Of a DNA stretch of 64,000 nucleotides, positions 3,132 through 19,444 are shown in pieces. Source of the DNA: Erysipelotrichaceae bacterium (GTDB taxonomy: Bacteria > Bacillota_I > Bacilli_A > RFN20 > CAG-826); NCBI GenBank assembly GCA_963588055.1, contig CAVAGB010000008.1, positions 11,622-75,621 on the forward strand. Reading direction: 5' to 3'. Under the pieces are notes generated by a model. That model saw only the letters and a program-made list of their open reading frames with translations. It had not been told where the DNA came from and searched no databases. Numbering within the stretch: position 1 is the stretch's first letter; each line of letters opens with the position of its first letter. The translations under genes and the position numbers were made by a program.

Positions 3132-3180
3132 GGATTCATCCCTCCTAAAGCACAACTATTAGAAAGGGTTTCCCATCAAA

Positions 3181-3457: not shown

Positions 3458-4249
3458 CTAACGGATCTGCTGTTTCTTCTCCGCGATGATGTCGAGCTCC
3501 ATCTGGTAATCGAAAGCCCAGTCGTAGCTCTTGCAGAAGCTCCCGTTGTAATTCCCCTCTCCCGTCTTCAGGAAATCCCAATAATCGCAGACGACTTTGC
3601 TTTTGTTGATCCTCAGCTGCGCCCTGGAGAAATAGACGCAGTCGATCTTGTATTCCTCTAAGGTCTTCCTAAGCCGCCAAACCGCGTCGCGATAGAGCCT
3701 TTTGGCGTTTTCCAACGGAGCATCAGGCCAAAGCTGGGAGATCGCATCGCTCATCTCCAGGGCCTTGCCGTTATAGGCAAGGAGCAAAGCCAAAAGCTCT
3801 TTGCTCTTCGCGCTGGAGAAGCGGATGGGCCTAGAGTCGATGAAGCAGTCGAAGCTATTGAACATCTTCGCCTCCAACAGGGTGCAGTTGTTTGCTATCT
3901 CATCCACGTAGCGCTTCACCTCGGCGAAGGAATAGGGCTTGTAGATGAAGCCGGCTACGTTGTCCCTAATCTCACAAGGCAGGTCGTCCATGCCGACTTT
4001 CACCCCGGTCACGAAGACGATCCGGATATCCTTGTTGAGCGTGGCAAGCTTCTTGGCTAGGGATATCCCATTGATGCCAGGCATATTGACGTCGATGAAG
4101 GCGGCGGTGACGTCGTTATGCTTCACATAGTCGAGTATTTGCTTGGCTTCGTCCTTGAAGAAGCGGCATTCGAGGTTGTCCAAAGAGACGATCTCCTTGA
4201 GGAAGATCTGCAGCGAGGATATCTCGTCGTCAATCGCGATTACTTTCAT
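3458..4249 (-). CDS. two-component response regulator, REC + SARP/OmpR-type winged-helix output
   Basis: REC motifs (MKVIAIDDE, DVNMPGINGI, VFVTG). C-terminus KSKELLALLLAYNGKALEMSDAISQLWPD...WRLRKTL. GGAGGGG SD. Start overlaps the kinase stop by 20 nt. Confidence 0.8.
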   Translation of the reverse strand: MKVIAIDDEISSLQIFLKEIVSLDNLECRFFKDEAKQILDYVKHNDVTAAFIDVNMPGINGISLAKKLATLNKDIRIVFVTGVKVGMDDLPCEIRDNVAGFIYKPYSFAEVKRYVDEIANNCTLLEAKMFNSFDCFIDSRPIRFSSAKSKELLALLLAYNGKALEMSDAISQLWPDAPLENAKRLYRDAVWRLRKTLEEYKIDCVYFSRAQLRINKSKVVCDYWDFLKTGEGNYNGSFCKSYDWAFDYQMELDIIAEKKQQIR

Positions 4250-6116: not shown

Positions 6117-6393
6117 TATACACGCGCATTGGGCTGCTCGGTCCTCGGGGAATGAAAAGGGCGGCCCATTGCGTGGAAACGATTAACCCAATAACGAGGC
6201 AAAACGGAAGCTCAGACTTGTGCGTAATACGTAGCCTTTATACCTTCACATCTTTTACAGTTACGTTTATCACAAAATTAAAAAAGCGCGATGCCACAGG
6301 ATCTTTTAACGTATCACGCAAGTTCAAAAATGTAGCATAATTGCCCTATTCCGAGATTTTTCATCTGCCTCAACTTATTTTTACGACTTTGCC

Positions 6394-6445
6394 TTCATCT
6401 AGAAAATGCAACTAAACTAGGTATTTTTCATTTAGAAAATGCAAC
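6394..6445 (+). repeat. 19-bp direct repeat x2 (TTCAT[C/T]TAGAAAATGCAAC), second copy contains the ATPase start codon
   Basis: Copies at 6394-6412 and 6427-6445 with 1 mismatch and a 33-bp period. ATG 6439 lies inside copy 2. Copy 1 opens a 4-codon mini-ORF (ATG CAA CTA AAC TAG). Confidence 0.85.
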
Positions 6446-7803
6446 GGAGACGTGCTACGCCATTCAAAAGAAAGATCTATCAAAAACTTCTCGACTGGAA
6501 AAAGAATCCCCACAAGAACAGCGCCCTTCTCATTGAAGGCGCCAGGCGCGTCGGCAAAACGACCATTGTCCAGGAGTTCGGTGAGAAAGAGTACAACGAT
6601 CACATCTACATCGACTTCACTTACGCGAGGGATGAGGCCAAAGACCTCTTCAAAAGGGTCCGCCCCTGCGATAAGAAATCCATGGATCTTTTCTTCTCCG
6701 ATCTTTTCCTGATGTATGGGAAAGAGCTTCACGAAGGAGACCTCATCATCTTCGATGAGATTGAGCACTGCCCTTTGGCAAGGCAAGCCATCAAAGCATT
6801 GGTCCAAGACGGGAGATTCGACTACATAGAGACCGGTTCTCTCATCAGCATAAGGGAAAATGTGGCGGGGATTCAGATCCCGTCCGAAGAGAGGCGCATC
6901 GAGATGCATCCGATGGATTTCGAGGAATTCCGTTGGGCCATGGGGGATGAGACCTCCTGCGAATTGCTCCGCAAAGCGTTTCTAGAAGGCGCCCCCATCA
7001 GCTTTGCGGTCCATCAAAAGATGATGGACGATTACCGCCTCTATCTTTCCTTAGGCGGGATGCCCCTTGTCGTCGCGACATATCTAGAAAGCAACTCTTT
7101 CTCCTCCGCTTCCGAGATCAAGAAGGATATCTGCAAGCTCTACGTCGACGATTTGAGGAAGCACGACAACCAATGCGGCACTTCGTGCCTATCCATCTAT
7201 CAGTCGATGCTTGCTTCCCTCCGCTCCTGGTCGAAGAGGGTGAAGACCGGTATCCGCAGCGAGGGGGAGAAACGGAAATACATCCGTTCCCTAAGCGATC
7301 TGAAGGACTCGCGCATCGTTAACTCCGTCCACCAGTGCAAAGATCTGAGCTTTGGGAACCTCGTCGAAGAGGAGACCGCCTTCAAGCTCTATCCCTTGGA
7401 CGCCGGGCTCATGCTTGAGGAGCTGCTTGGCGAAAAAGGAGTTTCAAGCGAGGAGGCCTATCGAAAAATACGTTTCGGAAAACTAAGCGGGGCAAATCTA
7501 GGCTTGCTTTACGAATGCGCGGCTTTGGAGGCTTTATCGGCCAATGGGCACACCCTTTATTACCACACCTTCCTTTATGGCGAGGAGGGGAAACGATATG
7601 AGCTCGACTTTGTCGGCTATCTGAAGGGGAGGCTGACCGCGATTGAGGTCAAAAGCACGAACCGCTTCACCACTTCTTCCTTGGACGCGCTGCCTTTGAA
7701 ATACCCTCAGCAAACCATAGACCGCGTCGTGATCAGCCCAAAGCCTTTTTCTAAAGCAAACAGCATCCTCAACTTGCCTCTTTATCTGACTTATCTGCTT
7801 TAG
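6439..7803 (+). CDS. AAA+ ATPase with C-terminal DUF4143/PD-(D/E)xK-like domain (COG1373 type), paralog 1
   Basis: Walker A GARRVGKTT, Walker B LIIFDEIE, C-terminal YELDFVGYLKGRLTAIEVKS. No obvious SD. Confidence 0.75.
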   Translation: MQRRRATPFKRKIYQKLLDWKKNPHKNSALLIEGARRVGKTTIVQEFGEKEYNDHIYIDFTYARDEAKDLFKRVRPCDKKSMDLFFSDLFLMYGKELHEGDLIIFDEIEHCPLARQAIKALVQDGRFDYIETGSLISIRENVAGIQIPSEERRIEMHPMDFEEFRWAMGDETSCELLRKAFLEGAPISFAVHQKMMDDYRLYLSLGGMPLVVATYLESNSFSSASEIKKDICKLYVDDLRKHDNQCGTSCLSIYQSMLASLRSWSKRVKTGIRSEGEKRKYIRSLSDLKDSRIVNSVHQCKDLSFGNLVEEETAFKLYPLDAGLMLEELLGEKGVSSEEAYRKIRFGKLSGANLGLLYECAALEALSANGHTLYYHTFLYGEEGKRYELDFVGYLKGRLTAIEVKSTNRFTTSSLDALPLKYPQQTIDRVVISPKPFSKANSILNLPLYLTYLL

Positions 7804-7920
7804 CCAAGAAAAAGAAGTCCATCACCCCCGGCTTGTAGTTCCCTTTGATATCGGCATCTTCCGCGGTTGCGACCTCGAGGCTTTCACTCTATTTCGAAGC
7901 ACTCCCATTGTTCTTACGGA

Positions 7921-8001
7921 TTCGCTATAGAAATTGCTAAATCATTTAATTATTCGCTTGATTTTTTGCATTTTTAATCAAACTTTCGCTATGGAAATTG
8001 C
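7921..8001 (+). repeat. 17-bp direct repeat x2 (TTCGCTAT[A/G]GAAATTGC), 64 bp apart, plus three TTGCAT motifs
   Basis: Copies at 7921-7937 and 7985-8001. TTGCAT at 7966, 7998 and 8008. Upstream of ATG 8064. Confidence 0.8.
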
Positions 8002-8063
8002 ATTCTTTTGCATGTGAAGATATACTTTTTATCGATGCTGTCGAACTTTCGGAGGTTCTACTT

Positions 8064-9419
8064 ATGCTGGAGAGAAAAATCAGTCAAAAATTGTTTGAAT
8101 GGAAGCAGTCTCAAGAGAATTCGAAAGAGAAAAAAGCCTTGATTGTCAAAGGGCTTAGACAGGTTGGCAAAACCTACATCATCGAACGTTTCGCGAAAGA
8201 GAATTACAAGAACTTTATCAAGTTGGACTTCAAAGCCAACCGTTCTTTGAAGGACGCTTTTTCAGGCGACTTAGACGTAGACACCATCCTTTTGAACCTG
8301 TCAGTTAAGATCAAGACGAAACCCATTCCTGGAAAGACGTTGATCTTCATGGATGAGATCCAGGAATGCTCCTCCGCGAGGGCTTCTCTTAAATCCTTTT
8401 GCGTAGACGGCAGATACGACGTCATCGCCTCAGGCTCGCTCCTTGGGCTGAACGGCTATAACCGCAAATCGAGCGAAGGGCCTTCGGTTGGATACGAGAT
8501 CTTCTTGGAGATGCAAGGAATGGACTTCGAGGAGTTCCTTTGGGCAAAGGGGGTCAGCAAGGAGATCCTCGCCAGAATAAAAACCCGTTTCAATAAGAGG
8601 CAGCCGATTGACCTAGCCATTCACGAGACGTTGCTTCGTTATTTCAAAGAGTACCTCATCGTCGGAGGGATGCCGGGCGTAGTCAACGCGTTCATCAGAA
8701 ACAACAGCTTCGCCGACGCGAGGCTCCTTCAGAAGTCTTTGCTGACTTCTTATAAAGACGACTTCGGACGTTTTTTGGACAAAAAAGAGGAGGAGCAAAT
8801 CAATCTGACTTTGAAAACGAAACTGACCCAGATCCTTGACTCCATCCCAAAGCAGCTAGCCAAAGACAACAAGAAGTTCATGTACGCCTCAGTGGCTGAG
8901 ATGGCCAGAAGGGAGACCTACGAGGAGGCACTGCAATGGCTCATCGATTATGGGCTGCTTCTGCCTTGCTGCAACCTGAAGAAAATCGAGTTGCCCTTAT
9001 CCGCCTATAAGGACCAGGATTTCTTCAAAATCTATTTCGCGGATACCGGGCTGCTGGTCTCAATGTTGGAAGAAGGGAGCGCCAGCGACATCCTCAACGA
9101 CAATCTAGGCATCTACAAGGGAGCCTTGTTCGAGGAGCTAGTCGCCTGCGCGTTCTCGAAGATGGGTAGGCCGCTTTATTTCTTCCAAAAGCCCAGTGGG
9201 CTGGAGATCGACTTCGTGACCCGCTATAACGGCAAGGCGACCCTAGTCGAGGTGAAGGCGAAAGGGGGCAAAACCAAATCGGCCGCGACGGTGATGCGCG
9301 ACAAAGTCCATTACGACGTCTCTGATCTGATCCGCCTAACCGCGCAGAACATCAGCTCCGGGGAAGGGGTGCTGACCCTCCCCTACTACCTGGTTTATCT
9401 CCTCGAAGAGGAAATTTGA
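8064..9419 (+). CDS. AAA+ ATPase with DUF4143/PD-(D/E)xK-like domain, paralog 2
   Basis: ORF-track TTG start 7998 replaced by ATG 8064, which has GGAGG 8 nt upstream. Walker A GLRQVGKTY, Walker B LIFMDEIQ, C-terminal LEIDFVTRYNGKATLVEVKA. Confidence 0.75.
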   Translation: MLERKISQKLFEWKQSQENSKEKKALIVKGLRQVGKTYIIERFAKENYKNFIKLDFKANRSLKDAFSGDLDVDTILLNLSVKIKTKPIPGKTLIFMDEIQECSSARASLKSFCVDGRYDVIASGSLLGLNGYNRKSSEGPSVGYEIFLEMQGMDFEEFLWAKGVSKEILARIKTRFNKRQPIDLAIHETLLRYFKEYLIVGGMPGVVNAFIRNNSFADARLLQKSLLTSYKDDFGRFLDKKEEEQINLTLKTKLTQILDSIPKQLAKDNKKFMYASVAEMARRETYEEALQWLIDYGLLLPCCNLKKIELPLSAYKDQDFFKIYFADTGLLVSMLEEGSASDILNDNLGIYKGALFEELVACAFSKMGRPLYFFQKPSGLEIDFVTRYNGKATLVEVKAKGGKTKSAATVMRDKVHYDVSDLIRLTAQNISSGEGVLTLPYYLVYLLEEEI

Positions 9420-9513
9420 CCTTGCGCACACGCGCGTGGCCTTTATAATTCTCCTCGTCAAAAGCAAAGCTAGGGCGACCTAGCGACGCAAAGCTAAAGG
9501 GTCTTAACAAGAC

Positions 9514-9562
9514 AGCCAGCTGCCTCCCGCAAGGGTTTCTAGCAGTTGGCTGGATTTTCTTT
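9514..9562 (+). terminator. putative rho-independent terminator
   Basis: AGCCAGCTGC (9514-9523) pairs with GCAGTTGGCT (9542-9551) at 9/10 positions, followed by GGATTTTCTTT. Confidence 0.4.
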
Positions 9563-9609
9563 GGTCAGCTAGAAACTTAAGCAGGGATTTCTAGTGTAGA
9601 ATTAGACCT

Positions 9610-10629
9610 ATGAGCAAGCTCTTCAAAAGAAAAGGATTCCGCCTCGCAAGCGTGGCTTATTTCCTTTCTTTGGGCACGCTTGCAGTCTCTTTGTTCGCCT
9701 GGTTCAGCACCTCCTCCACCTTCTCTTGGTTCGCCTCGAACAAGGAGGCGAATGCGAATGGCATGGCCATCAAGGTGAAATCAGACGATGACGTCGACAT
9801 CGAAATGGACGTCTTCAAATACGTCGAAGAAGGATCATACGACTCAAGCAGCTCGTGGGTCGGCAAAAACGAATACCACGTGCAGCAGTTCAACGATAGC
9901 GATTCGGACTGGAACCGCAAAATCGCCATGAACCGTTACGATACCGTCTTCCAGGAGGATAACCAGTACACGCCCATCTTGTTCAGATTGAAGCTTTCGG
10001 GCGGCACTCATGACAGCAATACAAAAATCCCCTTGAAGATTGCCCACGATGAAAGCAAAGACAAACTCATAACCACCTCGAAAACTAGCGAAGGGACCGC
10101 AGCCACCTGCGCGGATTACCCTCTCTCCAGTTACATCTCCTCCGTCGTCTCGGTGAAGGCCGTGGTCTACGACGGGACGAACACAAGCGATTCGACGAGC
10201 TGGGACACCGCTTCTTATACAAGCGAAGCCTATCCGGAAGCGACGGCGATTTTCGAGTACATGAGGACGGTCTTCAATGGTGAGGTATCGAGCGTCACCC
10301 CCGAGACGCAATATTTCGTCACGAGCATGACTGGGGGCAAAGACAAGGACGATGCCACAACAGCGGCCGCAAAGACCGAAACGACCTCTTTTACTAGCCT
10401 TACATTCCCCTCGGCAGGTGACTGTACCCTATATATCTGGATCGACTACGACACGGAGAAAGATTTGACGAGTTATACGAAAGGCAGCTCAACAACAGAA
10501 AATTGGGGCACCGGACTTATCAACGCCTACATCAGCCAGATGGAAGCCTACAGCACGCAATCAATCAACGTCAGCTATCCCATTCTCTGCGACCTCACCG
10601 AGATCTCGGTTGTGAGCGACAGCAAATAA
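9610..10629 (+). CDS. secreted/surface Ser/Thr-rich protein with TasA/camelysin-like (SipW-type) N-terminal region
   Basis: N-terminal anchor FRLASVAYFLSLGTLAVSLFAWF, then TFSWFASNKEANANGMAIKV, which resembles the T-x-A-x-F-S/T-D signal class. The rest is beta-rich and S/T/D-rich. The family call is tentative. Confidence 0.4.
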   Translation: MSKLFKRKGFRLASVAYFLSLGTLAVSLFAWFSTSSTFSWFASNKEANANGMAIKVKSDDDVDIEMDVFKYVEEGSYDSSSSWVGKNEYHVQQFNDSDSDWNRKIAMNRYDTVFQEDNQYTPILFRLKLSGGTHDSNTKIPLKIAHDESKDKLITTSKTSEGTAATCADYPLSSYISSVVSVKAVVYDGTNTSDSTSWDTASYTSEAYPEATAIFEYMRTVFNGEVSSVTPETQYFVTSMTGGKDKDDATTAAAKTETTSFTSLTFPSAGDCTLYIWIDYDTEKDLTSYTKGSSTTENWGTGLINAYISQMEAYSTQSINVSYPILCDLTEISVVSDSK

Positions 10630-10630
10630 G

Positions 10631-11938
10631 CTATTTAATTAACCTCAGCAAGAAATCCACCACGCCTATAACGGTGAAATTGTTCGAATCAAGATTCTCC
10701 TTTATTGGGCGATTCACCACGATTATCTTTTGAATCTGATCATTGAGCGCGATGTAAGGCTTTATCTCCCTAGCCCTCGTCTCCGGGCTTGCCATGTCGC
10801 TGCACACCTGGATGTAGAATTGCCTTGGCCCTCTTCTAGCCAAAAAGTCAATCTCATAGGTCTTTTTCACGCTCAACCTTTCCGCGTTCTTCTCAACACC
10901 GTCGAAGCATCCGACATTGACGTTGTATCCGTTGTAGATGAGCTCGTTATAAACCATGTTCTCAAGCATCTGCCCCTCATCGTCGAAAGCGAAATTAAGC
11001 TTGGCGTTTCTCAATCCGTTGTCGGTGAAATAGTACTTCCTTTGCGCGCCGATTTCGCGGTTGCCTTTTACATCGAACCGTTTCGCCTCCTCCAAAATGA
11101 AAGCATCGACGAAGTAAGAGATATAATTCGAGACAAGGTCCCTGCCCACCTTTGATTTGGTGGCGCTTTCGTAGATGCGCGTTAGCTTTTCTGCGTTGAG
11201 GAGCTGTCCGCAACTGCAGCTTAAGGCGTTAGTCAGGCCTTCAAGCGCCTCGCTTTTTGCCAAACGGTGGCGCTCAATGATGTCTTTGAAATAGGTGGTG
11301 TAGAAAAGTTCTTTGAGGTAAGTTTGCTTATCCGCCCCTTCCTTCAGCACCGCCAAAGGCATTCCTCCATATTGCAGATACTCATAAACGGTTTCAACGG
11401 ATGTGCTGTCTTTGTAGTTGCAGAACTCCTCAAAGGATAGGGGACGGAGTTGTATAATCGTCGCTTTGTCGCGGAATTCGGTGACGATGTCGCTTGAAAG
11501 CATCTTTGAATTCGATCCCGTGACATAGAGATCGATGAATTTCTCGCGAGAAAGCCCTAAGACAAGATCGACGAAGCTGATCGCGTTCTCATCGCCTTCT
11601 TTCGCAAGTACGACCTTACCATCTGTATAAACGGGGTTGATCACTCTGTCGAGCAACTGGATTTCGTCAAGGATGACGTAATTCTTCTTATTCGGATTGC
11701 AAAGGGCCCTGACGCGTTTGTCCAATTCGAAGGGGTTCCGGTACTTGGCATTGCGCAGATCATCAAGCTCGATGATGATGATGTTCTCTTCCTGGACGCC
11801 ATTATCGAGGAGATATTGTTTGTACATCTCCTTAAGCAAGAACGATTTGCCGCAGCGTCGGATGCCGGTAATAACCTTTGGGAATCCATTGTCTCTCGCT
11901 TGAATGAGCTTTTTCAGATGATAAGGCCTTGCAATCAT
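10631..11938 (-). CDS. AAA_14 ATPase with DUF4143 domain, paralog 3
   Basis: AAGGAGG SD. Walker A GIRRCGKSF, Walker B YVILDEIQ. C-terminal YEIDFLARRGPRQFYIQVCS, in which the E-V-K triad is replaced by Q-V-C. Confidence 0.8.
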   Translation of the reverse strand: MIARPYHLKKLIQARDNGFPKVITGIRRCGKSFLLKEMYKQYLLDNGVQEENIIIIELDDLRNAKYRNPFELDKRVRALCNPNKKNYVILDEIQLLDRVINPVYTDGKVVLAKEGDENAISFVDLVLGLSREKFIDLYVTGSNSKMLSSDIVTEFRDKATIIQLRPLSFEEFCNYKDSTSVETVYEYLQYGGMPLAVLKEGADKQTYLKELFYTTYFKDIIERHRLAKSEALEGLTNALSCSCGQLLNAEKLTRIYESATKSKVGRDLVSNYISYFVDAFILEEAKRFDVKGNREIGAQRKYYFTDNGLRNAKLNFAFDDEGQMLENMVYNELIYNGYNVNVGCFDGVEKNAERLSVKKTYEIDFLARRGPRQFYIQVCSDMASPETRAREIKPYIALNDQIQKIIVVNRPIKENLDSNNFTVIGVVDFLLRLIK

Positions 11939-11952
11939 AGAACCTCCTTTTC

Positions 11953-12052
11953 GGTAGATGTCTACCTTTTTTGCGGTTAGATTTTAACATATTTAGGCTT
12001 TTTTACAAAAAAAGAACCGCAAATTTGGTAGACTTCTACCTTTTTTGCGGTT
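11953..12052. repeat. 26-nt direct repeat x2 (GGTAGAnnTCTACCTTTTTTGCGGTT), each with an internal palindrome
   Basis: Copies at 11953-11978 (in the 5' leader of paralog 3, abutting its SD) and 12027-12052 (inside the terminator hairpin of the upstream gene). They differ at 2 nt. Confidence 0.85.
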
Positions 12053-12053
12053 C
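12005..12053 (-). terminator. rho-independent terminator of the 12077..12538 gene
   Basis: GAACCGCAAA (12014-23) pairs with TTTGCGGTTC (12044-53). Inner stem GGTAGA/TCTACC. Followed on the minus strand by U7 (A-run 12007-12013). Confidence 0.7.
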
Positions 12054-12076
12054 TGTTTGCCTAGCTCTATTTGGGT

Positions 12077-12538
12077 TTATGCCCTGAAGAGGACGAGGAT
12101 GCTATCGACGATGAGCATCGCCCCGGCGACGTAGAAGAAGACGTTCATGAAGTCCCAGGCGGCCGCGCTGCCCGCGCCCATGAAGACGATGACCAAGCCC
12201 ACGAGGATGTTCACGACGTTGCTGAAGATCCCCTGCCTTCTGATGAGCCCGGAGATGCCATAGGCGATCATCATGACCCCGTTGACGAGGAAGGCGACCC
12301 AAGCGATCGTCCAAGCGAAGGAGATCATCAGGATGCCGAAGATGATCTCGACGATGCCGTAGAGGACGTTGTGGGTGAAGATGGACATCACCCCGAGGAC
12401 GACGGTGATCGCGCCGATCACCGTGACGATGATCCCCATGATCGTCTCCGCGCCATTGACTCCTCCGACGATCAGCATGATGCCGGCGACGAGCAGGGCA
12501 AGCGCATACCATACCCGTCCCATTGTAGATTTAGCCAT
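12077..12538 (-). CDS. small polytopic membrane protein (DUF308/HdeD-like, tentative)
   Basis: 153 aa with 5-6 hydrophobic helices. AAGGAGG SD 9 nt upstream. The overlapping plus-strand D/E/H-rich ORF is judged a shadow. Confidence 0.5.
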   Translation of the reverse strand: MAKSTMGRVWYALALLVAGIMLIVGGVNGAETIMGIIVTVIGAITVVLGVMSIFTHNVLYGIVEIIFGILMISFAWTIAWVAFLVNGVMMIAYGISGLIRRQGIFSNVVNILVGLVIVFMGAGSAAAWDFMNVFFYVAGAMLIVDSILVLFRA

Positions 12539-12622
12539 AGATATAAGGCCTCCTTAAAACGAGGGTATTCTAGACCAATTGGGGATGGATGGCTTCCCGA
12601 AATGCAAACAAGGTTGGACTAA

Positions 12623-13873
12623 TCAAAAACGCTTCCCTTCTTTTATGAAATCCATCAGGTTCGCGTGGATGATGCCGTTTCTTTTCTGCGTGATTGAGTC
12701 AGTGGTCAGCAGATAGCGGGGATAACTATCCCAGGTGATGCTTTCAAGGCTGCGATACTCCCTCTCTTCCGTCTCCTCGGAGGAGAAAATCGTGTAGGCG
12801 ACTTGGACGTAAGAGTAATCGTTCTCTTTGCTGCGCATGATGAAGTCGCATTCGAATTGTCCGACTTTGCCAATGCTTATTGAATATCCTAGCCCAGCGG
12901 CATAGGTGAAAACGATGTTTTCCAAGGCCGGCCCGAAATTCACGCGATTATCCGTGCTGGTTGCGTAGTAGAAAGAGAGATCGGAAAGATAATATTTCCT
13001 CTCGCTGCCGATTGCTCGGCGCGTTTTAAGATCGAACCAGCGGCACGGCATAACGATTTTCGCGCTTTCCAAGGCGTCGATGTAGCGCCTTACCGTGACC
13101 GCTTTGGTAGCGATGCCTTTGCTTTTGAGGGCATCCACGATGTTGGATACGCTGATCGCTTTCCCGAAATTGCCGACTAGATAATTCATGACGGAGTCGA
13201 AAACCTCGCGGTTTCTGATCTGGATTCTCCTTTTGATGTCCTTTTCGTAGATTTCCGAGATCAGATTTCTCACGTATTCCCTTTTGGGTGCGAAATCATC
13301 GAGCTTGACCGCATAAGGGAAGCCTCCCTCCAGGATAAAGTTCTTCAGTTCTGTCAGATTATCCTGCGAAACAGGCTTGTGGAAGTGCTCCTTGGCGAGC
13401 AGGTATTCATCGAAGGACAGGGGCAAAACGCTGAATTCAATGTATCTTCCCGTGAGTTTGGTGATCAACTCCCCGGAAAGCAAATAAGAGTTGGAGCCTG
13501 TCACGAAAATGGAGAAGTCCCCTTCCTCTCTCCATCCGTTGATCACCTGCTCAAAACCTTCGACGTTCTGCACCTCGTCGATGAATAGGTATTTGACCCC
13601 TTCAGCCGTGGCGTGTTCTTCGATTAGCTTGTCAAGCTTGTCGGGAGTGTCTATCCCGCGATAGGGCCTTTTGTCCAAATTGAAGAAGAGGATGTTGCTT
13701 TCGTTCACGCCCGAGGCGAGAAGTTCCCTAGCGATTAAAGTCAAAATGGAGGATTTTCCAGAACGCCTTACTCCGGATAAGACTTTGATGATCTCGCATT
13801 CATGGTAAAAGCTTCGTATTTCCGATAAGTATTTTTCACGCGCGAATAAATCAGTAGAAAGGTCAATTAGCAT
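12623..13873 (-). CDS. AAA_14 ATPase with DUF4143 domain, paralog 4
   Basis: TTG 13879 replaced by ATG 13873, which has GGGAGGAAG 7 nt upstream. Walker A GVRRSGKSS, Walker B YLFIDEVQ. C-terminal FECDFIMRSKENDYSYVQVAY, a degenerate nuclease-like triad. Confidence 0.8.
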   Translation of the reverse strand: MLIDLSTDLFAREKYLSEIRSFYHECEIIKVLSGVRRSGKSSILTLIARELLASGVNESNILFFNLDKRPYRGIDTPDKLDKLIEEHATAEGVKYLFIDEVQNVEGFEQVINGWREEGDFSIFVTGSNSYLLSGELITKLTGRYIEFSVLPLSFDEYLLAKEHFHKPVSQDNLTELKNFILEGGFPYAVKLDDFAPKREYVRNLISEIYEKDIKRRIQIRNREVFDSVMNYLVGNFGKAISVSNIVDALKSKGIATKAVTVRRYIDALESAKIVMPCRWFDLKTRRAIGSERKYYLSDLSFYYATSTDNRVNFGPALENIVFTYAAGLGYSISIGKVGQFECDFIMRSKENDYSYVQVAYTIFSSEETEEREYRSLESITWDSYPRYLLTTDSITQKRNGIIHANLMDFIKEGKRF

Positions 13874-13911
13874 TTCCAACTTCCTCCCTAGGAAGTATAC
13901 ATCAAAAAGGT

Positions 13912-13978
13912 GAAAATGCCATTTTAGGGTACTTTTTCTACCGGAAAATGAAATTTAGTACCCTAAAACGCCATTTTC
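13912..13978. repeat. 21-bp inverted repeat (long hairpin) between recN stop and ATPase paralog 4 start
   Basis: GAAAATGCCATTTTAGGGTAC (13912-32) against GTACCCTAAAACGCCATTTTC (13958-78), with 1 mismatch, 1 wobble and a 25-nt loop. U5 follows on the minus strand, so this may be the recN terminator and/or a leader element. Confidence 0.75.
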
Positions 13979-14024
13979 GCATCTTCAAGGCGCCCCGATG
14001 GAACAAAGAAAAAGGCGTATCGGA

Positions 14025-15689
14025 CTACCGGCCCTTCTCCATGACCATCTCTTTCGCGTATTCCCTTTGCTTCTCGGTGATCTTGCCGTTGGAGATGAGG
14101 TTGGCCACCGCGTCGATCTTCTCTTCCAAGCCCAGCTCATGGATGGAGGTGCTCGTCCTGCCGTCTTTGACGCTTTTCTCTATGAGGAGGGCGTGGTCAG
14201 AAAGGCAGGCGACCTGCGGGGCGTGGGTGATCGCGATGACCTGGGTGGATAAGGAGATCTCGTAAATCTTGTTCGCGACGGCTTTGCTGGCTTCGCCTGA
14301 GATCCCCGTGTCGATCTCGTCGAAGATGGCCGTGCCGACTTTGTTGGAAGAGAGGAAGATCGAATGGAAGGCAAGCATGATGCGGCTGGTCTCCCCTCCG
14401 GAGATGATCTTCTCCATCGGTTTGAGCCCCTCCCCCACATTGGTCTCCAAAAGGAACTGGACCTCGTCTATCCCGTCTTCTTTCAAAGAAACCGGATCCT
14501 TCTCTCCGAGGGAGAAAGAGATTTTGAACTCGTCGCGGAGCAAGAGGTCCTTGAGGTTCTTCTTCATGCTCTTCTCGATGAGGGAGGCCACTTGCTGCCT
14601 GATTTTGGAAAGATCAACCCCTCTTTCGTAAGCTTCCTCGAAAGTATTGTCGGCTTGAAGCCTTGCTTCCTCTAGATCCTCTTCGAAGGTCGAGCCTTTC
14701 CCTAGCATCGACTCGAGCTCCGCCTGATAGGAAATGAGCTCAGGGATGGATTTGCGGTACTTCCTCTCCAAAGAGGAGAGCTCGCTGTCCCTTTGCTCGA
14801 GCTCCTCTAGCCTCGCGGGATCGTAATCCAAGGAGGAGAAGAGGCCTTTCAAAGAGGAGAAGATGTCCTCCAATTCGTAATAGGCATCGTCTAAACGCTT
14901 GCTTGATTCCTGGTATTGGGATTGGAAAGAGACGAGTTTTGCGACGTTTTTGTTGAGATCGTAGAGTTTTTCGATGGCGTCCCCATGGACGATCGAAGAA
15001 GAATCCTGCACGAGGGAATAGATGGAGTCGTAGTTCCTGAGGAGGGAGATCTCGTTTTCGATCCTCTCTTGCTCCCCTTCCTCTAGCCCCATCCCTTTGA
15101 GCTCGTTGTATTGGTATTCGTAGAAGTCCCTTTCGGATTCAAGCTTCTCTTTCTTCGCCTTCAGTTCCTCGTAATGGGCTTGCTTCTGCCTGTAGGAAGA
15201 AAGGGACGTGCGGTAGCTCTCAAAATAAGACGCCACCATGGAGGGGCGGTAGGAATCGATGAGGGAGAGATAGTTCTCGGGATTGAGCAGTTTCATCGCG
15301 TCGAACTGCGAATGGATATTCGCCAGAAGAGGGGCAAGGCGAGAGAGGTCGCCCAAGGAGATCATCGTCCCATTGGCTTTGATGTAGCTTTTGGTTTTGC
15401 CGATGACCCTCTCGATGGTCAAAGATCCATCGAAGGGAACGTTAAGTGAGGATAAGAGGGCTTCCAACTTAGGGGAAGAGGCTTCGAATTCCCCGCGGAT
15501 CGTGGCTTTGCTCTCCCCTTGGCGGATGAGTTCGCTTGAAGCTCGCTGCCCCAAAAGCAAAGACAAGGAATCAATGACGAGGCTTTTGCCAGCGCCGGTC
15601 CCGCCCATCAAGACTGTAAAGCCGTTTTTGAAAACGATGTCTACGTTTTCTAGGATGGCAAGATTAACGATGGAAAGGCGTTTGAGCAT
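14025..15689 (-). CDS. recN: DNA repair protein RecN
   Basis: 554 aa. N-terminal GGTGAGKSLVIDSLSLLLGQRA, long coiled-coil middle, C-terminal ISGGETSRIMLA and FDEIDTGISG. Confidence 0.9.
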   Translation of the reverse strand: MLKRLSIVNLAILENVDIVFKNGFTVLMGGTGAGKSLVIDSLSLLLGQRASSELIRQGESKATIRGEFEASSPKLEALLSSLNVPFDGSLTIERVIGKTKSYIKANGTMISLGDLSRLAPLLANIHSQFDAMKLLNPENYLSLIDSYRPSMVASYFESYRTSLSSYRQKQAHYEELKAKKEKLESERDFYEYQYNELKGMGLEEGEQERIENEISLLRNYDSIYSLVQDSSSIVHGDAIEKLYDLNKNVAKLVSFQSQYQESSKRLDDAYYELEDIFSSLKGLFSSLDYDPARLEELEQRDSELSSLERKYRKSIPELISYQAELESMLGKGSTFEEDLEEARLQADNTFEEAYERGVDLSKIRQQVASLIEKSMKKNLKDLLLRDEFKISFSLGEKDPVSLKEDGIDEVQFLLETNVGEGLKPMEKIISGGETSRIMLAFHSIFLSSNKVGTAIFDEIDTGISGEASKAVANKIYEISLSTQVIAITHAPQVACLSDHALLIEKSVKDGRTSTSIHELGLEEKIDAVANLISNGKITEKQREYAKEMVMEKGR

Positions 15690-15894
15690 AGCGAGATCAT
15701 TATACGAGGGTTAGGAAACTCTTTGCTTCGAATTGGCCTGGTTTTCGGTATCAGCATTTCAAGGAAATCGTTCTTCTCTTTGTAAGATTTTTGCAGATAA
15801 AAACGGTTTTGCTGTTTTTATTTTTACTTCAAGTGTTATCTTTGCTATATTTAAGGTAATTAAACGCGCTTAATGTGGGTTTAAGACAAAATAT

Positions 15895-17061
15895 ATGAAA
15901 TTATTAAGAACCGTCGTCTCCGGATTGCCCTTATTTGAGAAGAGCTGCTGCATTGATTTCTTCGCTTCGCAGCGCGTCAGCGAAGAAAACGAGGAGCATA
16001 TGGGCCTTTTGCTAGCAAACGGAGGGGCGAAGTTCTATCAGAACAACGTCCTCTCTTTCGCCGGCATAAACGCGTCTGGGAAAACAACCGTCCTGAAGTT
16101 GATCTCATTCGTATGCTCCTTGCTTGCGAACGAGCCGTTAAACGGCAATGCCTATCCCGAGGTTTTCGATGGATTGAAAGACGACGAGGAGGCCGTTTTC
16201 GAGTCTTCTTTCCTAAGCGGGGCTTCCGTCTATCTGCTGCGAAGCGCCATAGCCAAAGAAAACGGCCGCTTGGTCATCAAAAGCGAATCCCTCAGAGAGA
16301 AAAACGCCAACAGGATAAAAACGAAGAAGGATCTTTTGGAATTGTCCGATTGCAAAATTGTGTTAGCAAGAGACGCGGACGAACCTTTCTTACTGGATGA
16401 TGTGAGCATCATGGTTGCGTTCAACAAAGCGAGCAAAGACGTCGTTTCCTTCTGCGATTTGCTCCATTACACGAATGCCAACGAGCTCAGCATCTCCTCG
16501 GATTGCCCAGGGGAATTGATCGCCTTCTTCGATCCGAGCATCGAGCATCTTCGCATCCGCCAGGAAGGCAAAGAAAGCCGCATCGGCTTGAAATTCAAAG
16601 GGAAAGAGGAAATCGTTTTGAGCCGACTTGCCGAATTGAATCGTTATCTCTCTTCCGGGACCATCAAAGGCATCAACGTCTTCTTAGCCGCCATAAGGAC
16701 TTTTCAAACCGGAGGATACCTCATCATCGATGAGCTTGAGAATCACTTCAATCACGAAATTGTGTCCACTTTGGTCAAGTTCTACATGGATAAGAAGGTG
16801 AACCCCCGCGGCGCGACTTTGCTTTTCTCCACCCATTACGCCGAACTGTTGGATGAGATGGCCAGGAACGACAACATCTACATCACTAAAAACGACGGAG
16901 GCATCAACGTTACGAAGCTCACATCCCTCCTAAAAAGGAACGACATCAAGAAAAGCGATGCTTACGAAAGCGGATATCTTGATGGCACCGCCCCTCAATA
17001 TGAGGCTTATATGGCCCTAAAAAAGGCCTTTGTGAAACAGGCCAAGGAAGGTGAGAGATGA
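15895..17061 (+). CDS. ABC-type ATPase of the AAA_15/AAA_21 class (AbiLi/RloA/AriA-like)
   Basis: Walker A GINASGKTT, signature-like LSSGTIKG, Walker B YLIIDELENHFNH, H-loop LLFSTHY. Stop overlaps the next ATG (ATGA). Confidence 0.7.
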   Translation: MKLLRTVVSGLPLFEKSCCIDFFASQRVSEENEEHMGLLLANGGAKFYQNNVLSFAGINASGKTTVLKLISFVCSLLANEPLNGNAYPEVFDGLKDDEEAVFESSFLSGASVYLLRSAIAKENGRLVIKSESLREKNANRIKTKKDLLELSDCKIVLARDADEPFLLDDVSIMVAFNKASKDVVSFCDLLHYTNANELSISSDCPGELIAFFDPSIEHLRIRQEGKESRIGLKFKGKEEIVLSRLAELNRYLSSGTIKGINVFLAAIRTFQTGGYLIIDELENHFNHEIVSTLVKFYMDKKVNPRGATLLFSTHYAELLDEMARNDNIYITKNDGGINVTKLTSLLKRNDIKKSDAYESGYLDGTAPQYEAYMALKKAFVKQAKEGER

Positions 17062-17580
17062 AGCTTACCAAATATGTCGCCTGCATCTACGAAGGCTCGG
17101 CGGAAAGGGCCATCCTCGAGCTGCTTTTAGAGGCGAATAAGCTGATTTTCACCTGGGACGATCTTCTTGAAGGTGGAGTTGATCAAATGCCGAAGCGCGA
17201 AGAACTTCGAAGCGCAATACCTGCGCAAAGGGTTTCGCGACAAAATTACCGTCGTACGAGTGCTCGACTCAAGGAACGAGGTCTTCAAATTGAGCAAAGC
17301 CTATGAGCACAAAGTCGGGGTGATAAACATCGTCACCGCCCCGGAGATAGAGATGCTGATCATCCTCAGCGAAGGAAAATACGCGGAATACAAAAAATCA
17401 GGGAAGAAGCCAAGCGATTTCTGTAAAGAAAGCCTGAGGTTAGGAGCGGTCAAAAATTACGCTTTCGTGAAAGGCTATTTCTCGAATATCGAACGTTTGA
17501 TGTTCTCAATCAACGAGTACCAACGAATTTCTAAGATCCCCCAAGGGGAATATACGCTCAAAGACATCATCAGGAAATAG
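17058..17580 (+). pseudogene. RloB/AbiLii-like small Toprim-type partner, split by a +1 frameshift near 17160-17175
   Basis: Frame A (17058-) gives MKLTKYVACIYEGSAERAILELLL...TWDDLLEG and then junk. Frame B (open from 17146) gives ELIKCRSAKNFEAQYL...VRVLDSRNE...IVTAPEIEMLIILSEGKY, where EG-x2-E and PEIEML resemble RloB motifs. Removing one G in GGTGGAG restores a roughly 174-aa protein. Confidence 0.55.
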
Positions 17581-17605
17581 ATTCGACCGTGCGGAAACGC
17601 ACCGA

Positions 17606-19396
17606 TCAAAGGCGCTTCAAGTATTCGGATACGTTGAGATACTGCACCCCATTCCTAATTGTCGTATCTTCGCCGCGATACAAAACGAACTTGCCGACGA
17701 TTCTGCCGAATGACCTCTCCACCTCTCGGCAGCGCTTCTCGTTGACGATGTGCCGATACTGATTGGGGTCCTGCGCTTTGCTGTGCTTAATCTCATAGAT
17801 ATTGCACTCATATGTGGACTTATCCATGGTGACCATATCGAACTCCCCATCAATGAACTCTAGTTTGAACACCTCGTGAGTCTTTTTCAGTTTTCGCATC
17901 GTCTCGTATAAAACAATCTCCTCCAGCATGCCACCTTTCACCCCATCTAAGATCTTCTCGCAGACATAATCCTTCTCTTTTTCGCTCAGGGTCGAAAAAA
18001 GCCTGTCTTTCTTCAAAGAGAAGACCAAAGCTTCGGCTTGGCAGTACCTCATGCCGGGTTGAGTAAAAAGGACGTTCTCATCGCCTTCGCTTTCTTTCGC
18101 CCCCAAATACCGCACAGGGCATTTTTTAATCAGCTCAAGCGCTTGGAGGTATTCTTTGATCTCCCGAACGTGCTCTTCGCTTAAAGGAACGCTTAGCCCG
18201 CTTTCGTTTTTGATTTCAAGAATCTCCATCAAACGCTTGACCACGGCCTCTTCGTCGATGCTCTCCAAGGCTTTCGATCTCAGATTTGGGTCTCTCTCCT
18301 TAAGGAGGTTTTTCTTCGCCAAGCCTAGGTCATGCGACCTGAAATCCTCCTCCAGCACGCTGACGAGGAAACGGTGATTAAGGTCTTCAATGATGCGGTT
18401 TATCGCGCTAGTGAGCTCCCCGGCCTCATAAAGCTCGGAAAGCTTTCTGAAATGCGAGCCTCCCTCAAAGCACTTGAGGCTGTGCTGGATGTTACCGCAG
18501 ATTGAAGTATCGATGTATCTCCGCGTGCTTTCGTCGTCGCGGAAAGAAATGGATTCGTCCTTCAGCTCCTCATCGTCGAAGTCGTTTTCTCCTGCCCTTA
18601 AAGTTCCCCCGTAACGAATGTAGGCATCGATGTCATCGGTCCCTAGAAGACGGGAATGCTCCGCGAAGGGAATCCAAGTCGTATGGATGAGGCAAGAACG
18701 GTCATAGAGCTCGTTTCTGCTCGCGAGATAAATGCCCAAGGAGTCAGTGCTGGAAAGGACGATTCTCATTCCCATCGCCGCGTAGATGTCAGAAAGGAGT
18801 GAGGAGGTGTCGATGAAATCATCCATCAAAGTGGCTTCGTCAATGAAGACGTATCTATATCCAAGCTGACTCAGCTTCTGAAGGTCGGAGTCGAGCATCG
18901 CCATCCTTTCTCCTCTTCTCATCTTGATATAGGCCGACTTGGCGAAATCAGAAGGTTTCATGTCCGCGATCGCCTGCAAAAGCAAAGTGGTCTTGCCCGT
19001 TCTACGGAGGCCATAGACGGAGCAGACCCTTGGCGAAGAGGGGCCGAAGATAAACTCTTGCAAGGCTTTGTAGCAATCGCGCTTTTGAAACGTTTTGGTA
19101 GGAAGGACCAATTGTTTCAGCGCAGCGCCGCGGATGACCTTCGTCTCAAACGTTTCCGAAAGTTCGACGGCGCAAGTTAATTTCAAGGCCTTCAATTCCT
19201 TTTCCAATTCCCTCCTCTTTTTCACATCCTTCTCAATCTGTTCGAAATCTTCGTCTGGGATGTAGCGGCTCTTCGTTTTCCCTTGCTCGCTCCATTGCAG
19301 ATAATGGCGAACCTTCCCGCTTATCTTCTTCTCCGAAATGCAGCCTTTCGGAAGGACCGCTATCTGCTTTCTCAGTTCCTCAATCGTTTTCTTCAT
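17606..19396 (-). CDS. large AAA-type ATPase, paralog 5 (N-terminal extension, C-terminal D..E-x-K-like motif)
   Basis: TTG 19423 replaced by ATG 19396 (MKKTIEEL). Walker A GLRRTGKTT, Walker B YVFIDEAT, C-terminal GEFDMVTMDKSTYECNIYEIKHS. Confidence 0.65.
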   Translation of the reverse strand: MKKTIEELRKQIAVLPKGCISEKKISGKVRHYLQWSEQGKTKSRYIPDEDFEQIEKDVKKRRELEKELKALKLTCAVELSETFETKVIRGAALKQLVLPTKTFQKRDCYKALQEFIFGPSSPRVCSVYGLRRTGKTTLLLQAIADMKPSDFAKSAYIKMRRGERMAMLDSDLQKLSQLGYRYVFIDEATLMDDFIDTSSLLSDIYAAMGMRIVLSSTDSLGIYLASRNELYDRSCLIHTTWIPFAEHSRLLGTDDIDAYIRYGGTLRAGENDFDDEELKDESISFRDDESTRRYIDTSICGNIQHSLKCFEGGSHFRKLSELYEAGELTSAINRIIEDLNHRFLVSVLEEDFRSHDLGLAKKNLLKERDPNLRSKALESIDEEAVVKRLMEILEIKNESGLSVPLSEEHVREIKEYLQALELIKKCPVRYLGAKESEGDENVLFTQPGMRYCQAEALVFSLKKDRLFSTLSEKEKDYVCEKILDGVKGGMLEEIVLYETMRKLKKTHEVFKLEFIDGEFDMVTMDKSTYECNIYEIKHSKAQDPNQYRHIVNEKRCREVERSFGRIVGKFVLYRGEDTTIRNGVQYLNVSEYLKRL

Positions 19397-19414
19397 TGCG
19401 TTCGTTATCTTTCT

Positions 19415-19444
19415 TATAACCAATTATAACCAATTATAACCAAT
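19415..19444. repeat. perfect 3 x 10-bp tandem repeat TATAACCAAT
   Basis: Read directly. Lies 19-48 nt upstream of ATG 19396 on the minus strand. Confidence 0.95.

Follow-up and report, generated by a model that had tools for sequence, protein, structure and literature searches.

Five diverged AAA_14-type ATPase genes with their own promoter repeats in a gain-and-loss hot spot of an Erysipelotrichaceae genome

Why would a bacterial chromosome gather five strongly diverged ATPase genes among genes of its core? This question is raised by a 64,000-nucleotide stretch of an Erysipelotrichaceae genome (GenBank assembly GCA_963588055.1, contig CAVAGB010000008.1, positions 11,622 to 75,621 of the forward strand), which we call the window and in which positions are counted from the first letter. 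Within 13 kb of it (6439-19396) lie five genes with an AAA_14-type ATPase domain, here P1 to P5, whereas the other 51 kb contain none. We find that the five genes are additional members of a known, very abundant and uncharacterised family, PDC-S01, and that the locus is a hot spot of gain and loss inside the core chromosome rather than a discrete island. We put the chances somewhat above even that these genes are autonomous, autoregulated modules of the PDC-S01 kind, combining DNA binding, an ATP switch and a nuclease-like domain, which have accumulated in the hot spot and serve in genetic conflict.

Five ATPases of three architectures

All five open reading frames (ORFs) are intact and lie where the original prediction, made from the sequence without database searches, had placed them: P1 at 6439-7803 and P2 at 8064-9419 on the plus strand, and P3 at 10631-11938, P4 at 12623-13879 and P5 at 17606-19396 on the minus strand. 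The true start of P4 is probably the ATG at 13873 rather than the called start, and the P5 ORF of 605 amino acids (aa) was trimmed to a called gene of 596 aa. The AAA_14 domain scores above the Pfam gathering cut-off of 27 bits in every one of the five (39-112 bits; 78-112 bits for P1 to P4, 39 bits for P5). DUF4143 does so in P1 to P4 (34.7-96.1 bits against a cut-off of 28.1), and the E-values for P1 are 4.7e-22 for AAA_14 and 1.8e-08 for DUF4143. Both of the predicted domains are therefore present in P1 to P4. P5 has the AAA_14 domain and no DUF4143 match in Pfam, even at E<=10, with weak Pfam matches to DUF6788 at its amino-terminus and to nSTAND_NTPase5. We distinguish three architectures on this basis. 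Type A (P1 and P2) joins AAA_14 to DUF4143 and ends in a canonical E...ExD...ExK motif, type B (P3 and P4) has the same two domains and a lysine-less variant of the motif (E...ExD...QxC in P3, E...ExD...QxA in P4), and type C (P5) joins DUF6788 to AAA_14 and has a canonical PD-(D/E)xK-like carboxy-terminus. A search of all six frames of the window with profiles of the three types returned exactly P1 to P5 and no further match.

The Walker motifs are invariant in the homologue alignments. Walker B (hhhhDE) is found in all five proteins as predicted, and the Walker A form GxRRxGK[ST] holds for P1, P3, P4 and P5 but not for P2, which reads G-L-R-Q-V-GKT, with RQ in place of RR. The carboxy-terminal motifs had been quoted exactly (ELDF..IEVK in P1, EIDF..VEVK in P2, EIDF..IQVC in P3, ECDF..VQVA in P4 and FDMV..YEIK in P5). 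In an all-against-all BLASTP comparison P1 and P2 are 30% identical and P3 and P4 27.6%, and the remaining pairs show no detectable similarity. The paralogs are too diverged for a recent tandem duplication, as had been argued from the start, and we reject such a duplication; the copies are old.

Which family do they belong to? The PADLOC models for PDC-S01 (PF13173 and PF13635; COG1373) match P1 to P4 over their full length, model PDLC04786 with 1.9e-85 for P1 and 5.4e-137 for P2, and model PDLC04787 with 7.5e-101 for P3 and 2.7e-128 for P4. These four thus resemble PDC-S01 in matching its hidden Markov models at 1e-85 to 1e-137, in being single-gene units, and in fusing an ATPase to a domain of the PD-(D/E)xK superfamily, which is how the family has been described, with validation pending (PMC12988326). 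P5 differs in its partial and weak match (7e-07), its DUF6788 amino-terminus and a carboxy-terminus that the DUF4143 model misses. Family membership of the genes is well supported. PDC-S01 is a PADLOC candidate obtained by 'guilt by embedding' and is the fourth most common call across prokaryotes (PMC13356809, PMC12988326). With 10,358 occurrences in 6530 rumen genomes it outnumbered every other single locus there (PMC13356809), and the expectation that such ATPases are usually single-copy has to be given up. Searches of the literature on DUF4143, COG1373 and AAA_14 yielded almost nothing functional. No PHROGs or NCBIfam family matches any of the five, and sequence searches of the PDB with P2, P4 and P5 returned no relative.

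Predicted fold and a conserved clade without the catalytic lysine

The AlphaFold2 (AF2) model of P4 (predicted local distance difference test score, pLDDT, 86; predicted template modelling score, pTM, 0.86) consists of an AAA+ core at about residues 1-165, a helical lid, a winged helix at about 224-298 and a carboxy-terminal domain. In a Foldseek search the best match of this model was the archaeal AAA+ protein SSO1545 (2fna; E 2.6e-10, TM 0.47/0.55), followed by Orc1/Cdc6 (E 1e-7 to 1e-8), CED-4, NLR (nucleotide-binding and leucine-rich repeat) resistosomes of plants, RuvB, RFC and DnaA. As modelled, the ATPase part is of the initiator/STAND-like class of AAA+ proteins, that of the origin recognition complex (ORC), Cdc6 and the signal transduction ATPases with numerous domains (STAND), and carries a winged helix.

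Foldseek was run on whole models only, and its matches were all generic AAA+, ORC and STAND proteins, so it was rejected as a guide to the carboxy-terminal domain. We judged the PD-(D/E)xK fold by strand order, motif positions and profile-profile alignment. In the P4 model the domain runs from a helix (315-329) through three strands (333-339, 342-349 and 355-361) to a second helix (368-379) and a strand at 388-392 with further strands behind it, and places E320 on the helix, E343-x-D345 on strand 2 and Q359-V-A361 on strand 3. The P5 model (pLDDT 83.5) has the same alpha-beta-beta-beta-alpha-beta order (helix 472-503, strands 507-514, 517-525 and 531-536, helix 553-562, strand 566-573), and its carboxy-terminus aligns to that of P4 only by profile-profile comparison (hhalign probability 90.6%, E 1.3e-6). 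DUF4143/COG1373 is listed as family 100, function unknown, in a catalogue of the PD-(D/E)XK superfamily (PMC3424549). The catalogue entry and the modelled strand order of P4 and P5 agree with the prediction that the carboxy-termini are restriction-endonuclease-like.

The catalytic D...(D/E)-x-K arrangement on strands 2 and 3 is found in P1, P2 and P5. In the P2 clade E357, E381, D383, E396 and K398, which make up the helix glutamate, the E-x-D-F and the E-V-K elements, are kept in at least 99% of 118 sequences, and P1 retains the same catalytic positions. In P5 the residues E498, D520, E535 and K537 (E535-x-K537) are invariant in 43 homologues. The (D/E)-x-K element is not present in P3 (Q-V-C) or P4 (Q-V-A), a difference that had been read as active against inactive versions. 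With P3 as query, an exhaustive search yielded 3817 cluster representatives (E<=1e-10), and the clade was aligned as 111 full-length sequences, namely 109 representatives (30-61% identity) together with P3 and P4. Glutamine replaces the (D/E) residue in 107/111 of them, and the lysine position holds A, T, C, S or V in 108/111 and lysine in 0/111. The helix glutamate is kept in 108/111, the two acidic residues of E-x-D in 98 and 101, and the phenylalanine in 108, and there is an additional conserved K/R on the following strand. Because the Q-x-small motif is conserved throughout the clade it is a stable signature under selection and not an inactivation, and we reject the idea of P3 and P4 as decayed copies on this clade-wide conservation of Q-x-[A/C/S/T], which leaves the reading as active and inactive versions unsupported. 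The carboxy-terminal domain of P3 and P4 thus appears to be a conserved lysine-less variant. Since this variant defines a large conserved clade, surveys should not regard PDC-S01 matches as interchangeable nucleases.

Single inserts in a core backbone

Is the locus an accessory island? We used RecN as an anchor, took 10-kb flanks and mapped the window proteins onto the loci of relatives, which we designate by L numbers together with the other contigs compared. The window RecN is 87-91% identical, and its locus syntenic, in L002-L006, which stem from several metagenome-assembled genomes (MAGs) of one sequencing project, and it is 45-58% identical to that of MAGs from rumen and gut that carry the labels Bacilli, Bacillales or Erysipelotrichaceae. 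In the records of the 'H07...cleanbin' MAGs (L002-L011 and L028; RecN 55-91% identical) the organism names are mutually incompatible (Parasutterella, Paludibacteraceae, Lachnospiraceae, Alistipes, Prevotella, Faecalibacterium) and unreliable.

The backbone shared with the relatives runs from dehydratase genes through an aldose epimerase and a GDSL gene to slot A, RecN, slot B, a membrane protein gene, slot C and a secreted-protein gene, at which synteny ends. It is kept in L002-L005, L007 and L036. In the window P1 and P2 stand before the secreted-protein gene, P3 is in slot C, P4 in slot B, and an AbiLi-like pair and P5 are in slot A. L036 has P2 (82% identical) before the secreted-protein gene, empty slots C and B, and a HipA fragment and a P5-like gene in slot A. 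L003 has the start of a P2-like gene before the secreted-protein gene, again empty slots C and B, and in slot A a HipA-like gene, a split AbiLi-like gene and P5 (70%). In L002, L004, L005 and L007 neither P1 nor P2 precedes the secreted-protein gene and slot C is empty. Slot B is empty in these loci apart from an AAA_14 fragment in L004, and slot A holds a HipA-like gene and an intact AbiLi-like pair in L002, a split HipA-like gene in L005, and nothing in L004 and L007. The L004 fragment (86 aa, 11748-12008 on the minus strand) comes from a different AAA_14 gene (LVFLDEIQ...) and lies on the strand opposite to P4. L006 departs from the layout, with a P1-like gene (60%) directly after the membrane gene and only a remnant of the P4 promoter unit in slot B, and the secreted-protein gene was not detected at its locus.

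The AbiLi-like ATPase is present in L002, split in L003 and absent from L004, L005, L007 and L036. The HipA-like kinase gene, which occurs in the slot between GDSL and RecN of the relatives and not in the window, lies just under the threshold of Pfam HipA_C and matches the PADLOC candidate PDC-M03A (9e-19); it is located at 5378-6547 (minus strand) in L002, 8728-9750 (minus) in L003, 8080-9215 (minus, split) in L005 and 14737-15318 in L036. Across the seven relatives compared the five ATPases, the AbiLi-like ATPase and the HipA-like gene come and go singly, and an invariant locus, which would have spoken against the original prediction, is not what we see. From this slot-by-slot presence and absence it follows that each of the five genes is an insert in the core backbone that can be dispensed with on its own, and their accessory status is well supported. 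The predicted accessory or conflict island holds in so far as the genes are variable and losable, but they are interleaved with a syntenic core backbone and form no discrete island. Their interleaving with recN and the secreted-protein gene had been recognised correctly, and both of these are backbone genes common to the relatives, recN with a TIGR00634 score of 430.1 bits.

Type-specific repeats over the promoters

Each of the five genes has repeats at its start or directly upstream. We compared them with the flanks of orthologues located in unrelated genomes. P1 has two 19-nt direct repeats of TTCAT[CT]TAGAAAATGCAAC, 33 nt apart, at its start (6394-6445, plus strand; copies at 6394 and 6427), and 0/100 shuffles reach two matches. 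In L006 the orthologue, 60% identical to P1, carries four copies with a period of 33-34 nt. Upstream of P2 there are three direct copies of TTCGCT-N7-TTGC with an exact 32-nt period (7921-8001, plus strand; copies at 7921, 7953 and 7985), which are the only three matches of this pattern in the window, and 0/100 shuffles reach three. P2-type genes at six loci share 3-4 direct repeats of about 20 nt with a period of 32-34 nt that end at the -10 element, a layout common to the orthologues L036, L136, L139, L140 and L119.

The P3 promoter (11953-12052, minus strand) contains two direct copies of AACCGCAAAAAAGGTAGAnnTCTACC, at 12052-12027 and 11978-11953, which flank the -35/-10 pair at 12008-11981. 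This 27-nt unit of the P3 type has one copy before the -35 element and one between the -10 element and the ribosome-binding site in both the window and L143 (n=2). In L143, whose protein is 65% identical to P3, the inner 14-bp palindrome reads CATAGAATTCTATG instead of GGTAGAnnTCTACC, a compensatory change.

The P4 promoter unit (13894-13985, minus strand) is an inverted repeat with arms at 13985-13957 and 13933-13905 and half-sites TTTAGGGTACT at 13967 and 13923. The -35 element (13922-13917) abuts the inverted repeat; behind it come a degenerate third half-site and then a -10 element at 13899-13894. Seventeen loci of the P4 type can be stacked gap-free on TTAAGGGGG, some 22 AT-rich nt and ACCCCCTTAAC, the last bases running into the -35 element; an extended -10 element follows at a fixed distance, often with the third half-site between -35 and -10. 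The arms co-vary (TTATGGGGGTA/TACCCCCATAA and TTAACGGGGTA/TACCCCGTTAA, against TTTTAGGGTACT/AGTACCCTAAAA in the window), and the palindrome is a different one in the subgroup with about 50% identity to P4. We had considered the hairpins after recN and the membrane gene as terminators of those genes, with a duplication of the insertion site, and rejected this when orthologues elsewhere identified them as the promoter units of P4 and P3.

Directly upstream of P5 are three tandem 10-nt copies of TTGGTTATAA (19414-19443, minus strand). P5-type genes have two direct half-sites, the -35 element and two inverted half-sites, with the -10 element inside the final one, so arranged as to form a palindrome, and the arms co-vary here also (TATACCCC/GGGGTATA, ATATCCCC/GGGGATAA, GATAACCTA/TAGGTTATA and GTAACCTAT/ATAGGTTAC). 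Such repeats occur in 8/9 distinct upstream sequences, the ninth, L033, having none.

Within the window each repeat motif is confined to the promoter of its own gene, and no regulon is visible. The type-specific repeats overlap their own promoter, keep their position in orthologues from unrelated contexts, and their paired copies co-vary. Because they stand in a fixed register with the promoter, co-vary and move together with the gene, they are most simply read as operators, which the encoded protein itself would bind. We saw no mention of such promoter repeats in the papers found on the family.

Two other approaches to the repeats were of little use. A statistic of recurring 9-mers proved too insensitive and was abandoned. 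A scan of IMG/VR with TTAAGGGGG-N14-30-CCCCCTTAA gave 52 matches, none adjoining an AAA_14 gene, and as the pattern is unspecific this is no test of the association. Many unrelated IMG/VR viral contigs (L070, L077, L082, L084, L091, L097, L104, L107, L109-L111, L113-L116 and others) contain a recurrent 40-nt palindromic element, TTAAGGGGGTAATGACTTCCCGAAGTTGTTACCCCCTTAA, with no AAA_14 gene nearby.

Traces of gain and loss

At the slot between RecN and the membrane gene, relatives that lack P4 retain a P4 unit of about 80 nt, with the inverted repeat, the -35 element and the third half-site, and with no -10 element and no gene. L002 and L006 still have the whole unit, L003 has lost half of it, L036 has kept only its tail, and L004, L005 and L007 have none of it. 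These graded remnants imply that the ancestor of the subgroup had P4 and that repeated losses followed. In L047, L048 and L050 a second unit of about 80 nt follows directly after the stop codon of the P4-type gene, with no gene behind it, giving an arrangement of unit, gene and unit (second units at about 1441-1490, 1645-1695 and 2730-2780, respectively). The second unit could promote such deletions, and it also keeps a cassette-like movement possible. Beyond the second unit of L047 lie a terminator and a putative tRNA gene.

P2, P4 and P5 have thousands of homologues each. Among the matches listed, most relatives of P4 have a length of 416 aa and an identity of 65-69%, and some carry the name Clostridia. 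Such identity across taxa, compared with less than 60% for RecN outside the genus, suggests horizontal spread. The P4-like P0120 adjoins an integrative mobilisable element and hipBA, and the P5-like P0217 lies between integrases and an IS110 transposase. On IMG/VR contigs P5-type genes stand beside large serine recombinases, a tyrosine integrase or a Mob_Pre relaxase. A P4 relative (about 30% identity) occurs on 271/72,556 plasmid records, 174 of the 271 from Acinetobacter, and on only 18/50,697 phage records. A Tn7-like or insertion sequence (IS)-like element was considered for the window and rejected, as the genes examined between 231 and 24533 include neither a transposase nor an integrase.

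A proposed mechanism and its alternatives

How might such a gene work? In the mechanism we propose, each protein is made up of an ORC/Cdc6/STAND-like AAA+ ATPase, a winged helix and a carboxy-terminal domain of the predicted PD-(D/E)xK fold, and each gene has a promoter of its own, over which the type-specific repeats lie. The protein would bind its own repeats as a dimer or oligomer through the DNA-binding domain and so control its own expression. The ATPase may act as a switch through which DNA recognition or oligomerisation is linked to the nuclease-like domain, so that ATP would control the nuclease. The modules are dispensable and apparently horizontally spread, and probably serve genetic conflict, either in defence against mobile DNA or in its maintenance. 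A role in defence is plausible but unproven and is the weakest step of the proposal.

Several observations weigh against this proposal. The canonical catalytic Glu and Lys are missing from P3 and P4, which makes a nuclease activity of their clade uncertain. The window P5 shows one side of the palindrome only, with no clear left arms, and P1 has two repeats only. By a local repeat-score statistic the long repeats are clear, and arms of 11-12 nt score only modestly above shuffles at each locus. The repeat argument draws on conservation of position across loci, and these loci are homologous. A host factor might bind the repeats instead, or they might have a role at the DNA level. Several orthologues are solitary among housekeeping genes, outside defence islands, and conservation within the P4 clade is unusually high for a defence gene. 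Finally, the one PDC-S01 gene tested, cloned in E. coli B, did not protect against T4, T5 or T7 (bioRxiv 10.1101/2024.09.26.614923).

It is possible, though unlikely, that the genes are selfish single-gene cassettes which mobilise themselves, with the repeats serving as recombination sites or as the ends of the element and the ATPase-nuclease doing the mobilising. Analogues would be homing-type nucleases, or IS elements in which the transposase promoter is part of a terminal repeat. P3 and P4 are indeed inserts of a gene with almost no extra DNA, and the unit-gene-unit arrangement in L047, L048 and L050, the lone P4 unit at the same slot in L002 and L006, the orthologues found as single genes in unrelated contexts and the high sequence conservation across taxa would all suit a cassette. 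The P4 of the window has no downstream unit, however, and the graded erosion from L002 and L006 through L003 to L036 looks like a deletion remnant rather than a maintained attachment site. No target-site duplications were seen and the window holds no near-identical copies, while the third half-site in the promoter spacer and the fixed register with -35 and -10 suit operators better than element ends, and P5-type genes travel beside ordinary recombinases. We consider it quite unlikely that the proteins are ordinary regulators with no part in conflict, that is, ATP-dependent transcription factors whose nuclease-like domain only binds a ligand or DNA and whose clustering is incidental. Gene-by-gene presence and absence among congeners, with pseudogene remnants, is hard to reconcile with this, as are the association with mobile elements and plasmids, the canonical catalytic residues, which at least 99% of the examined P2-clade sequences keep and which do not vary among 43 P5 homologues, and the restriction of cognate repeats to the gene's own promoter within the window. 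Such a role would nevertheless agree with the winged helix and the operator-like repeats, with the lack of the catalytic lysine in the P3/P4 clade, with the solitary orthologues among metabolic genes and with the negative outcome of the sole published phage test.

A further explanation makes the proteins initiator-like or maintenance proteins of mobile elements, an ORC/Cdc6-like protein acting on iteron-like repeats, with the copies here as remnants of integrated elements. The similarity of the P4 fold to Orc1/Cdc6 and DnaA, the iteron-like direct repeats with a period of about 33 nt beside P1-type and P2-type genes, the relatives on 271 plasmids and the location of genes of the P5 and P4 types at the borders of integrative elements all point in this direction, yet five origins in 13 kb of chromosome are implausible. 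No other replication or mobile-element genes lie beside the five genes here or beside solitary orthologues, the repeats overlap a promoter and not an AT-rich unwinding region, and the conserved nuclease-like domain is left unexplained. We therefore hold this explanation to be very unlikely.

A bolder hypothesis about the whole family can be formed, to which we give a little less than an even chance. PDC-S01 genes may be self-contained modules that unite a promoter, the ATPase-nuclease and a lineage-private repeat code, made of palindromes or of iteron-like arrays with a period of about 33 nt, the protein assembling on its repeats as an ORC/STAND-like oligomer, so that sequence-specific DNA recognition and not the sensing of phage proteins would be at the core. 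The P3/P4 clade would have exchanged E-x-K for Q-x-small, and the units that flank P4-type genes at some loci may mediate gain and loss of the cassette. The locus brings together three architectures and five specificities, and its close relatives show clear gain and loss. A testable mechanism for the family comes from the co-varying promoter repeats. If the family is not defensive, censuses of defence systems that count PDC-S01 are inflated.

Relation to known systems

The best structural matches of the P4 model, SSO1545 (2fna; Pfam ATPase_2) and Orc1/Cdc6, share with it the AAA+ core, the lid and the winged helix. Archaeal Orc1/Cdc6 binds repeated origin boxes next to its own gene. Unlike our proteins, Orc1/Cdc6 has no PD-(D/E)xK domain, and P2, P4 and P5 show no sequence similarity to entries in the PDB. 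The STAND NTPase-nucleases (Avs/AVAST), with Apaf-1, CED-4 and NLR proteins, likewise combine a nucleotide switch with a PD-(D/E)xK-type effector in one polypeptide. The proteins described here differ in having no carboxy-terminal arrays of sensor repeats, in being much smaller (416-596 aa) and in carrying the nuclease-like domain at the carboxy-terminus.

Autoregulated toxin-antitoxin and abortive-infection modules such as AbiE also have palindromic or repeated sites over their own promoter; in AbiE-type systems a winged-helix repressor is bound to inverted repeats there. They too are small, mobile, losable and multi-copy, and HipA-like and AbiLi-like genes occur in the same variable slots. 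In our case, in contrast, one protein would be both regulator and effector, and no antitoxin partner was detected adjoining any of the five genes. McrBC and type IV restriction share the coupling of an NTP-driven AAA+ motor to a PD-(D/E)xK nuclease acting on DNA, but McrBC is a two-protein GTPase system of a different AAA+ clade, and no PADLOC model for McrB or McrC matched the window genes.

Neighbouring genes

RecN is encoded at 14025-15689 on the minus strand, its TIGR00634 score exceeding the curated cut-off of 407.85. The AbiLi-like gene at 15895-17061 (plus strand) encodes an ABC-type ATPase (AAA_21, Pfam 5.5e-15; PADLOC AbiLi 3.3e-36), and is followed by a frameshifted partner gene at 17058-17580 (plus strand; ORFs 17058-17306 and 17167-17580). 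In L002 the partner is an intact ORF of 172 aa (about 3541-4059, minus strand), which has no match in Pfam or PADLOC, including AbiLii, RloB and Toprim. The frameshift could be real decay or an assembly error of the MAG. Of the AbiL-like pair that had been proposed here the ATPase is confirmed, but the partner has no family match and is frameshifted in the window. The description of the two as an ABC-ATPase/Toprim-like pair falls, since the partner shows no detectable similarity to Toprim, RloB or AbiLii.

Downstream of the locus lie the GDSL lipase, the aldose epimerase and the 2-hydroxyacyl-CoA dehydratase genes, and upstream a histidine kinase and a response regulator, a protein with Schlafen AlbA_2, HATPase_c_4 and helix-turn-helix (HTH) domains, and an SPFH protein. 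The Schlafen AlbA_2 protein, with HATPase_c_4 and a winged helix, is encoded at 1791-3155 (minus strand) and matches PHROG 12156 'DNA helicase' (8e-53); Schlafen AlbA_2 is another family that is often multi-copy. The small membrane protein of the backbone is encoded at 12077-12538 on the minus strand.

The secreted protein (9610-10629) matches no family. Its leader contains a cyclic di-GMP-I (c-di-GMP-I) riboswitch (RF01051, 9453-9527, plus strand, 57 bits), which is kept in all relatives that have the gene (n=6), at 10157-10231 in L002, 13490-13564 in L003, 14118-14192 in L004, 12794-12868 in L005 and 10666-10740 in L036. L007 has two copies, at 5074-5150 and 9244-9320, one of them before a 1339-aa paralog of the secreted protein. 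The protein begins with an amino-terminal hydrophobic signal containing FSWFAS, which we take to resemble signals of the SipW/TasA type.

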